64,000 bases of DNA from a virus (Duplodnaviria; Heunggongvirae; Uroviricota; Caudoviricetes): the IMG/VR virus record IMGVR_UViG_2541047938_000006, one strand, 5' to 3'. Positions 3,001-6,000 of the stretch are shown piece by piece; position 1 is the stretch's first letter; every line of letters begins with the position of its first letter. Made by a program: the position numbers.

Positions 3001-6000
3001 CTACGAGGAGATGAAAACGACCGGGATCTTTAAGAAAAAATGCCCGGAAGAACACTACGTCGCTTTCCGCGCATTCCGTGAAGATCCACAGGCAAACCCG
3101 TTGAAAACACCTTCGGGGAAAATCGAAATTTATTCTGAACGACTGGCGAAGATTGCAGATACCTGGGAATTGAAAAAAGATGAAATTATTCATCCCCTTC
3201 CTGCGTATACCCCAGGTTTTGATGGCTGGGACGATCCCCTGCGGAAAACCTATCCACTGCAGTTAACGGGCTTCCATTACAAAGCGCGTACCCACTCCAG
3301 CTACGGCAATATTGATGTGTTACAGCAGGCCTGCCCACAAGAGGTGTGGATCAACCCCATTGATGCTCAGGCACGCGGTATCCGTCATGGCGATACCGTG
3401 CGGGTATTTAACAATAATGGAGAAATGCTGATTGCCGCAAAAGTGACTCCGCGTATTCTGCCTGGCGTTACCGCCATCGGGCAAGGTGCGTGGCTTAAAG
3501 CGGATATGTTTGGTGACCGGGTCGATCACGGCGGCAGTATCAATATTCTGACCTCTCACCGCCCTTCACCGCTGGCAAAGGGAAACCCGTCGCACAGCAA
3601 TCTTGTCCAGATCGAAAAGGTTTAAGGAGTAGCCCATGACCACACAATATGGATTTTTTATCGATTCCAGCCGCTGTACTGGCTGTAAAACCTGCGAACT
3701 GGCGTGCAAAGATTTTAAAGTTGGTTACGTATCGTTTAAAATCAATTAGATAGCCCGTCATTTCTGCGCTCACACGTCCCAACATTGAAAAACATGCAAA
3801 GCTTTGTAAGCCGATGCAAAGCTTTGTGTGTCTCACTTTTGTCCCAATACCAATCCGAATCCACCCTTTGTCATCATTGAGAAATGGCAAGGAAGAAAAG
3901 GATGTTACTGCACGATTTGACAAATCCGCCAGAGCTATCGCATACTGATCGCACTGAACAAATAAGCGGTCTCCGCACCCGATAGCTTTGCGGCTTTTTT
4001 ATGCCTGCAATTTGGCATAGTTACATCCGTACAAAGGTCGGGTGGAGAGGCGTAATACAACACCCGCAAGGGGAATATGCCCAGAGCTTCTTATTTGGCT
4101 CAGTTGACACCCGACCGCCAGCTACTAACTGGCGGTTATAAACTAAACAAATAAGGAGGTCATCATGACCAGTCAACTCATCCCCGTATTCAACGGTTCT
4201 ATCTCAAACCAAGCAGCCCTTCTATGCAATGCTCGCAATCTACACGCTTTCCTTGGGGTTGGTAAACGCTTTGCATCGTGGATAACAGAACGTATTGCTG
4301 AATATGGTTTCGTTGAAAATCAGGACTATATGATTGCTTCCCAAATTCGGGAAGCAAAAGGTAGAGGCGGTCACAACCGCAAGGAATACCACCTCACCCT
4401 CGACACAGCCAAAGAGCTTGCGATGGTTGAACGTAACGAAAAAGGTCGCCAGATCCGCCGCTACTTCATCGAGTGCGAAAAGAAACTTCGCAACATTCAG
4501 CCAGTACAAGCAGAACCACAGCCGCAATTCACAGCCGAGGAAATCATCCTCCTTTGCTACATGCAGCTCTGGATGGAAAAAGCCCAGGACCTCAGCAAAC
4601 ACCTGTATCCCATCATGAAAGAGCTGAACTCCTCATACACGAACAAGCTGTATGACATTGCGTTTGAGACCATCTACATGGTGACGAAGAACAGAGATGC
4701 GTTACTGAGGGAAGTAACACGTCTCGACATGTCAAGTTCCGTTATCCAGCGGGCCATGCCAATGCTGAAAAGCCTGCGGGCAAGACAATTTGAATTCTGA
4801 AACCAAAGGAGCTTCGGCTCCTTTTTTCATGCCTGAACGACAACGCCGCTGAAATCGAAGAGTTAATACAATAAAGAGAAGAGCTCAGTACATTAGATAA
4901 ACATTTTTTATCATTATCTCATTGCCTTTATTCAAAAAAATAGTTACATAACGTTACTAGGTAAAATGCAAACCCTCGCTATTTTTATCAGATTGTATGC
5001 CGGTAACTATAACAAAAATCAGAACTGGAGAAGATGTTTTGTCAGCAGCCATTCACCGCATTGAATGGTTGTTTGAAACATTCTCTTCTGTATGTTTATC
5101 TTTTTCTGGCGGTAAAGATTCCACTGTACTTTTCCATCTTGTAGCCGAAGTGGCCTACAGGAAGAAACGTCGTTTTTCTGTATTGTTCATTGACTGGGAA
5201 GCCCAGTATCAATGCACCATTGATCATATACAGAAGATGCGGATGATGTACCAAGATGTAACAGATACCTTTTACTGGGTTGCACTTCCCCTGACGACAG
5301 TAAATGGTGTCTCGCAGTTTCAGCCTGAGTGGATATGCTGGGAGCCCGGTGTAGAGTGGGTTCGACAGCCACCGGAAGATGCTATTACTGATATGGCGTA
5401 TTTCCCCTTTTACCGCTACGCCATGACTTTTGAAGAATTTGTCCCAGCTTTTTCTTCCTGGTTCGCAAGTAACCAATGTAGCGTGGCAATACTGACTGGA
5501 GTCCGCGCGGATGAATCTCTTAACAGATTTATGGGACTGGTTTCCCAACGAAAACTGAGATATGCAGATGATAAACCCTGGACCACGGCGTCACCTGAAG
5601 GTTTTTACTACACCATGTATCCGCTGTATGACTGGAAAACCAACGATATCTGGGTATATAACGCTAAAACCTGTGCAATCTACAATCCTCTGTATGATTT
5701 GATGTACCGTGCAGGCATTCCTCTACGTAATATGCGTGTCTGTGAGCCTTTTGGCCCGGAACAGCGTAAGGGACTATGGCTTTATCATGTTCTGGAGCCA
5801 GAAACTTGGGCACGGATGTGTGAACGAGTATCTGGTGCTGCCAGTGGGGCTCTTTATGCCAATGAAAGCGGGGCCTATTTTGCCCTGCGTAAACGGATGT
5901 CAAAACCATCCCATCATACCTGGCGCAGCTATGCGTTCTTCCTGCTGGACGTAATGCCGGAAAGAACGGCTGAACACTACCGCAACAAGATAGCAGTCTA

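Follow-up and report, generated by a model that had tools for sequence, protein, structure and literature searches.

A stx-negative 933W-like prophage inserted in ynfG of Escherichia coli at a seven-base core, and the conserved arm beside the core

The DNA analysed here, called the window below, is a stretch of 64,000 nucleotides (64 kb) of Escherichia coli DNA taken from IMG/VR virus record IMGVR_UViG_2541047938_000006 (Caudoviricetes); all coordinates are those of the whole stretch. It begins in the ynfEFGH-dmsD operon, which encodes the selenate/DMSO-type reductase YnfEFGH, enters a prophage within ynfG and ends inside that prophage. In this operon, YnfG is the electron-transfer link from the catalytic subunit to YnfH, and DmsD is the twin-arginine translocation (Tat) chaperone for DmsA, YnfE, and YnfF (PMC5203670). 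An earlier note, made from the window alone, had placed a prophage inside the ynfG coding sequence, with its far junction beyond position 64000. The host genes, the left attachment (att) junction, attL, and the prophage lie as follows.

Up to 1141: 3' part of ynfE, at the start of the window, in the ynfEFGH-dmsD operon
1199-3625, + strand: ynfF, selenate/tellurate reductase catalytic subunit, an intact host gene upstream of the junction (open reading frame, ORF, of 808 amino acids, aa; same coordinates in the annotation of strain SCU-104)
3636-3719, + strand: 5' fragment of ynfG with ATG at 3636, 28 native codons including those for C14, C17, C20, and C24
3714-3720: att core TTTAAAG at attL, the sole sequence common to both junctions when attL is compared with the right junction, attR, of SCU-104 and ten other contigs
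3721-64000: body of the prophage within the window, 933W-like (Sepvirinae) and negative for the Shiga toxin (Stx) genes, stx

The match to native ynfG covers 28 codons (MTTQYGFFIDSSRCTGCKTCELACKDFK, 3636-3719) plus G3720. Homology stops after the core and phage DNA follows from 3721 on, just as the earlier note had described. The ynfG frame runs on into nine phage codons (VGYVSFKIN) and ends at TAG in 3747-3749, giving an ORF of 37 aa. The NCBI Prokaryotic Genome Annotation Pipeline (PGAP) annotates 3636-3719 in strain SCU-104, the complete genome nearest to the window, as a fragment of a 4Fe-4S protein without its C-terminus. A tblastn search of the window with a YnfG query matched this 5' fragment only, and no 3' part of ynfG was found there. 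The window ends within the phage gam gene, with the far junction indeed beyond it.

The far junction was read in relatives, namely in SCU-104, in ten contigs encoding a RecE identical to that of the window, and, by megablast, in 89 complete E. coli genomes. Over the last 10.8 kb of the window, the identity to SCU-104 is 99.97%, and two of the ten contigs show a single base difference in 12.6 kb. Past gam, SCU-104 has bet, exo, a DUF4222 gene, xis, the gene of a 387-aa integrase (int), GTGGTGAGCAACAAC, TTTAAAG, ynfG from codon 29, ynfH, and dmsD. Inspection of the far junction, which the earlier note had proposed as the check, thus returned in these relatives the integrase gene, the core, and ynfG from codon 29 onward. 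This attR is identical and at the same offset in all ten contigs with the RecE of the window, and the stretch int-GTGGTGAGCAACAAC-TTTAAAG-ynfG' is the one found in the 89 complete genomes. In the genome of the window, the attR core is predicted at the equivalent of positions 66986-66992, about 3.0 kb past the window end, for a prophage of about 63.3 kb. Past 64000, bet, exo, the DUF4222 gene, xis, and int are expected, followed by '...GTGGTGAGCAACAACTTTAAAGATCTTGGCCCGGAAG' at about 2.99 kb from the end of the window.

The window does not come from SCU-104 itself, which is ruled out by the extra IS21-family insertion sequence (IS) element of the window and by other differences; SCU-104 int coordinates therefore do not map onto the window. 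A transposase of ISEc8 (IS66-family) lies in ynfE of SCU-104, and window positions 1-565 keep the ynfE sequence (compared with SCU-104 locus L001, 1-565), so this otherwise near-identical lysogen has lost ynfE too. No match to the whole window was found among complete RefSeq genomes.

The crossover lies within or next to TTTAAAG, which spans codons 27-28 and the first base of codon 29 of ynfG. In the attachment site of the uninterrupted host, attB, the core is flanked by CAAAGAT and ATCTTGG, a 6/7 inverted repeat that would fit two core-type sites on either side of a 7-bp overlap. When the host flanks of the two junctions are joined, they are 100% identical to the uninterrupted ynfF-ynfG of many strains, and integration is therefore conservative and exact. 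This comparison with an uninterrupted ynfEFGH locus, also proposed in the earlier note, together with the junctions and the core, bears out the placement of the prophage inside ynfG. Of 5426 complete E. coli genomes, 5230 have a contiguous attB, 82 have the attL of the window together with the first kilobase of phage DNA, and 89, belonging to several serotypes, have the int-attR-ynfG' stretch. About 1.5% of complete E. coli genomes have a prophage at ynfG. The strains of the 2011 O104:H4 outbreak are included; they carry the same int-attR-ynfG' junction (e.g., NC_018658.1, 2525202-2526242), and a phage that has this integration module therefore divides their ynfG.

The IS21-family insertion in the esterase gene of the prophage and a DUF1627 gene that is frameshifted in SCU-104 could suggest a random or decayed remnant of a phage, and not the result of site-specific integration. 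This is extremely improbable, as 82-89 genomes of many serotypes share the same junctions base for base, attB is rebuilt exactly, the xis-int module is complete in the relatives, and site-specific lysogeny into ynfG was shown by experiment for a phage whose att arms are the same (PMC4193171).

The ORF that begins at attR has 183 or 184 aa, compared with 205 in native YnfG. It is in frame, and the phage contributes to it GTG-GTG-AGC-AAC-AAC, i.e., a GTG start and three or four codons, (V)SNN. Rebuilt native YnfG has cysteines at positions 14, 17, 20, 24, 67, 70, 75, 79, 99, 102, 105, 109, 126, 129, 141, and 145, the four groups (16 Cys) of a four-cluster Fe-S subunit. The stump at attL has group I only, and the attR ORF lacks group I, i.e., C14, C17, C20, and C24. 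In the structures of NarH and FdnH, the first three Cys of group I bind the cluster nearest the catalytic subunit and the fourth binds the next cluster. The N-terminus of YnfG aligns with such four-cluster subunits (residues 4-160 with PsrB, 2VPW_B; residues 7-160 with FdnH, 1KQF_B), and its CxxCxxCxxxC motif (residues 8-33) aligns with ethylbenzene dehydrogenase 2IVF_B. By homology with NarH, FdnH, and PsrB, C14, C17, C20, and C24 would accordingly supply three of the ligands of the cluster closest to the catalytic subunit and one ligand of the next.

Since group I is gone from the attR ORF, ynfG is not restored at the far junction. The earlier note had expected the lysogen to lack the native Fe-S subunit unless the far junction restored it, for instance by an N-terminus supplied by the phage; in the relatives, attR supplies only four to five phage codons and no CxxCxxCxxxC motif. 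The lysogen is thus inferred to be without functional YnfG. The opposite reading, that the far junction rebuilds a working ynfG from a phage-carried 5' end, in the manner of some phages that integrate into tRNA or protein genes, is very improbable. In its favour are the in-frame ORF with a GTG start from the phage and the name 'ynfG' or B subunit, not pseudogene, that PGAP gives to the attR ORF in most lysogens. The shortness of the phage part and of the ORF and the loss of all four group I Cys argue against it, no Shine-Dalgarno-like sequence is evident upstream of the GTG, and the junction does not vary among the ten contigs.

The label deserves attention of its own. In most lysogens (about 89 RefSeq genomes; SCU-104 locus L002, 13785-14339), PGAP names the attR remnant 'ynfG' or 'DMSO/selenate family reductase complex B subunit' (DMSO, dimethyl sulfoxide), as though the gene were whole. 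The artefact is systematic among lysogens, and the label of an intact 'ynfG' hides the loss of the first Fe-S Cys group. The downstream genes may be affected as well, as ynfH-dmsD now lie downstream of int and cut off from the ynfE promoter, and a polar effect is possible. The parting of ynfH and dmsD from the operon promoter could in turn affect the assembly of DMSO and selenate reductases.

The integrase, read in the relatives, adjoins the junction and has a PF00589 tyrosine-recombinase domain (E = 1.5e-45). Judged from its sequence, it is a member of the P22/DLP12 family, with 70% identity to P22 Int (target thrW), 76% to Int of the P22-like phage BIS08P22 (target argU), and 87% to a DLP12-like Int (target argU). 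The core size of 7 bp matches the overlap region usual for integrases of the P22/DLP12 type. Conservation is highest in the N-terminal 65 residues, which are arm-binding, and least in residues 66-175, the presumed core-binding domain; this pattern fits shared arm sites and differing core specificity. The xis gene precedes int and overlaps its start, and the Xis protein contains an HTH_17 domain; its identity to P22 Xis, counted from the alignment, is roughly 70-75%.

When attP, the attachment site of the phage, was rebuilt and aligned with its counterparts in P22, phage L, and BIS08P22, some 130 bp on the side away from int were found to be conserved, while the cores differ. The identity of 3735-3852 to the P22-like phages is 82-88%. 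Variants of this arm were gathered from IMG/VR with an 18-nt anchor in the arm, which gave at least 62 distinct 100-nt variants and at least 49 distinct 64-nt cores; counts over variants below refer to these listed matches. The arm contains the following features.

3721-3860: distal arm of attP (the P arm of lambda), from alignment of four attP regions; kept in P22, phage L, and BIS08P22
3776-3781, + strand: GTCCCA, candidate integrase arm-type site A, with an unchanged offset in all of the at least 62 variants, partly by construction as it lies inside the 18-nt anchor
3792-3831: inverted repeat, a hairpin with a 17-bp stem and a 6-nt loop, from RNA folding and a terminator scan; the two palindromes are in its arms
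3797-3806: first CAAAGCTTTG palindrome
3817-3826: second CAAAGCTTTG palindrome
3830-3835, + strand: GTCTCA, candidate integrase arm-type site B, 54 bp after site A
3841-3846, + strand: GTCCCA, candidate integrase arm-type site C, 11 bp after site B

GTCYC(A/G) occurs at offsets 12 and 66 in every variant and at offset 77 in nearly all, and the 54-bp spacing from A to B is constant whatever the sequence of the spacer. Tandem GTCCCA copies 11 bp apart are present also on the other arm, within the 3' end of int (L002, 13697 and 13708). The GTCYCA repeats are probably integrase arm-type sites; a literature search on the arm-type sites of P22 returned nothing relevant. Another sequence, ATGCAAAG, was considered as the arm-type site on account of a copy in the 3' end of int and was rejected, since, unlike GTCYCA, it is not conserved in P22 or BIS08P22. 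IMG/VR homologues of the integrase were also tried as a source of distal arms and given up, nearly all of these contigs being prophage cut-outs that stop at int or run into argU host DNA. The 48-bp spacer between sites A and B is variable, but A-rich tracts (AAAG/AAAA) recur in it at intervals of about 10 bp in every case. The arm seems to be modular, its geometry being fixed and its middle swappable between lineages (3776-3846 in the window; loci L087-L206).

The spacer of the window contains the two palindromes that the earlier note had pointed out just inside the phage end. They are there, 77 and 97 bp inside it, and CAAAGCTTTG occurs exactly twice in the 64 kb, compared with about 0.1 expected by chance and one in 100 shuffles reaching two; they are better taken as the two arms of one inverted repeat than as independent sites. 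The predicted hairpin has a folding energy of -22.7 kcal/mol (z = -4.9; none of 200 shuffles as stable) and is formed by 31 of the at least 49 distinct cores. Over these 31 variants, chosen for having the hairpin, pairing between the two units leaves 92% of cells paired, with 26 compensatory cells at three pairs and a covariation score above all 500 shuffles. Pairing within each unit gives 86.6% of cells paired and 11 compensatory cells, and 90 of 500 shuffles score as high. Between-unit pairing has moderate support, and not more, because few lineages covary and the variants were picked for the hairpin. In the window itself, the + strand folds much better, and the curated record of phage L annotates a terminator (locus 1549-1597) at the matching position of the aligned arm. 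The hairpin is most likely a transcription terminator or an RNA-stability element just beyond attP. No Rfam family matches it, the only hit being a sub-threshold mir-19 match (E = 0.012), well below the gathering score and taken as chance. An apparent terminator at 3965-4000 was discarded, as its fold is not significant (z = -1.0). The heptamer TGCAAAG is present in the ynfG half of attL (3705-3711), in both hairpin arms (3795-3801 and 3815-3821), and in the 3' end of int (L002, about 13733), which may be chance.

The palindromes could also be read as double-stranded DNA sites in attP, bound between the arm sites by the P22-like Xis or by another bending or accessory protein. The constancy of the A-to-B spacing in all variants, the regular A-tracts in all spacers, the recurrence of ATGCAAAG as a direct repeat 20 bp apart, and the likeness of Xis to that of P22 speak for this; P22 Xis reportedly binds cooperatively and bends the P arm. 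Against it, complementarity within each unit is no better than in shuffled controls, complementarity between units covaries, and the commonest variant listed has a non-palindromic second unit that still pairs with the first. Such a role for the palindromes is a tentative possibility, and it is compatible with that of the hairpin, so that both may hold.

Taken together, a short-tailed lambdoid 933W-like prophage of about 63 kb without stx has most probably inserted in ynfG by conservative site-specific recombination, in which the P22/DLP12-family tyrosine integrase of the phage acts at the 7-bp core TTTAAAG. The left junction consists of ynfE-ynfF and a stump of 37 codons, 28 native and nine from the phage, and the right junction, as read in close relatives, of xis-int directly upstream of ynfG codons 27-205, ynfH, and dmsD. 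Precise excision would restore ynfG exactly. The hairpin would be downstream of int in the circular phage and downstream of ynfF-ynfG' in the lysogen. The probability of the whole account, i.e., site-specific integration that splits ynfG, loss of YnfG, and the hairpin as a terminator or RNA-stability element, is put at roughly 0.9.

Several points count against it. The attR and int of this genome lie outside the window and are taken from relatives whose identity to the last 10.8-12.6 kb is 99.97-99.99%. The close paralogue DmsB might stand in for YnfG, and read-through from int could provide for the transcription of ynfH-dmsD. As to the arm, the remaining 18 of the at least 49 cores do not form the hairpin and are rich in A-tracts instead, and the compensatory changes come from one or two lineages only. 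Across the 31 variants, the mean energy is equal on both strands and the G.U bias is only 66 to 30, and the U-tract on the + strand is weak. We infer the assignment of the GTCYCA repeats to the integrase, as well as that of the Xis-binding, DNA-bending region, which the hairpin may overlap.

A further reading goes beyond this account and takes the prophage as a reversible switch ('active lysogeny') on ynfEFGH-dmsD, in which integration would silence YnfG and uncouple ynfH-dmsD from the anaerobic promoter, and precise excision at the 7-bp core would restore the gene. The conserved hairpin beside the junction would then insulate host and phage transcription from each other. The only grounds for a switch are the exactness of the junctions and the recurrent coding-sequence target of an integrase family that otherwise targets tRNA genes, and it is considered quite improbable.

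As for the rest of the prophage, the genome similarity and the gene order of a short-tailed lambdoid phage, with an N4-gp56-type capsid, a giant LPD38 protein, a nanS-p esterase, and a Q-lysis region, place it with the 933W-like phages of Sepvirinae. The order is antirepressor, IbrA/IbrB-like genes, Panacea-domain gene, LPD38 protein, tail genes, N4-gp56-type capsid, lysis genes, nanS-p-type esterase, nin region, cII/cro/cI, kil, recE, and gam. No tRNA genes were found in the prophage. Individual features, including a cargo block by the att site (4997-15994), are as follows.

4036-4124, + strand: match to Rfam family sRNA-Xcc1 (69 bits, exceeding the gathering score), immediately before the antirepressor gene and about 320 bp inside the phage end
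4165-4800, + strand: AntA/AntB-family antirepressor, the first prophage gene (211-aa ORF; SCU-104 annotation)
4997-6852, + strand: cargo block, 3'-phosphoadenosine 5'-phosphosulfate (PAPS)-reductase/IbrA-like and IbrB-like genes
6941-7465, - strand: cargo block, Panacea-domain gene
7616-15994, - strand: cargo block, LPD38 polyvalent protein of 2792 aa
43456-45995: IS21-family element (istA 43636-45177, istB 45189-45938), absent from SCU-104
47139-47348 and 47624-47817, - strand: two copies of the STnc100 small RNA family in the Q-esterase interval, where Stx phages have tRNA genes and stxAB
51458-51656, - strand: C4 antisense RNA, its a1/b1 target, and isrK, by a second (ORF6N) antirepressor gene

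The IS21-family element splits the nanS-p/SASA esterase gene into two fragments on the - strand (42346-43455 and 45996-46937). A 309-bp segment of the first antirepressor gene (4519-4827) is repeated in inverted orientation by the second one, at 50703-51011, with 97% identity. As regards stx, the 1.4-kb Q-esterase interval (46937-48358) has no ORF of at least 120 aa, and no search aimed at the Stx protein was made.

The best matches of the prophage are PhiR5_2 (PV340546.1) as the closest sequenced phage, and then Stx1 and Stx2 phages. PhiR5_2 covers 89% of 3721-28000 at 94.8% identity and 57% of 38000-62000 at 98.5%, and its record ends in the same att arm, but the lysis, nin, and esterase regions are mosaic; a literature search found no paper on this phage. 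With the P22/DLP12 (IntD) module, the prophage shares the tyrosine integrase, the P22-like Xis, and the distal attP arm, where identity is 82-88% in a stretch of about 115 bp that contains the hairpin and the GTCYCA repeats. It differs in the target, since the core TTTAAAG is here in the protein-coding gene ynfG, whereas the cores there are in the 3' ends of the tRNA genes thrW (P22) and argU (DLP12-like, BIS08P22). In position, the hairpin resembles tI/sib of lambda, as both are long hairpins just past attP, at the end farther from int, that integration parts from int and excision reunites with it. Unlike in lambda, the U-tract on the int-sense strand is weak and about a third of the related arms listed lack the hairpin; there is no sequence similarity, and the likeness is one of position and predicted fold alone.

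The use of ynfG as an attachment site is already known, and the present insertion is a further instance of it. The Stx1 phage phiPOC-J13 inserts into S. flexneri S1742/ynfG and, experimentally, into ynfG of MG1655, its integration having been shown in MG1655 and S. flexneri 2457T (PMC4193171). The same site is used by S. sonnei phage 75/02 Stx (PMC5447701) and by the Stx1a prophage of E. coli RM10410 (PMC10562709). The record of 75/02 Stx ends within a base or two of the core, those of POCJ13 and PhiR5_2 end 1-17 bp inside the phage arm, and the arms of all three are 99-100% identical to that of the window. The prophage is like phiPOC-J13 (KJ603229, Shigella flexneri), 75/02 Stx (KF766125, Shigella sonnei), and the RM10410 prophage in the ynfG/S1742 site, the core, and the 933W-like (Sepvirinae) type, and for phiPOC-J13 and 75/02 Stx the identity of the att arms holds over 3721-3960. 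Unlike these Stx1a phages, it is stx-negative and has the two STnc100 copies and the IS21-family insertion, and only 30-35% of its right half is shared with them, at 87-90% identity. It is a stx-negative mosaic relative of known Stx1 phages, and the presence of such relatives at a site of Stx1 phages bears on site occupancy and on the acquisition of Stx phages.

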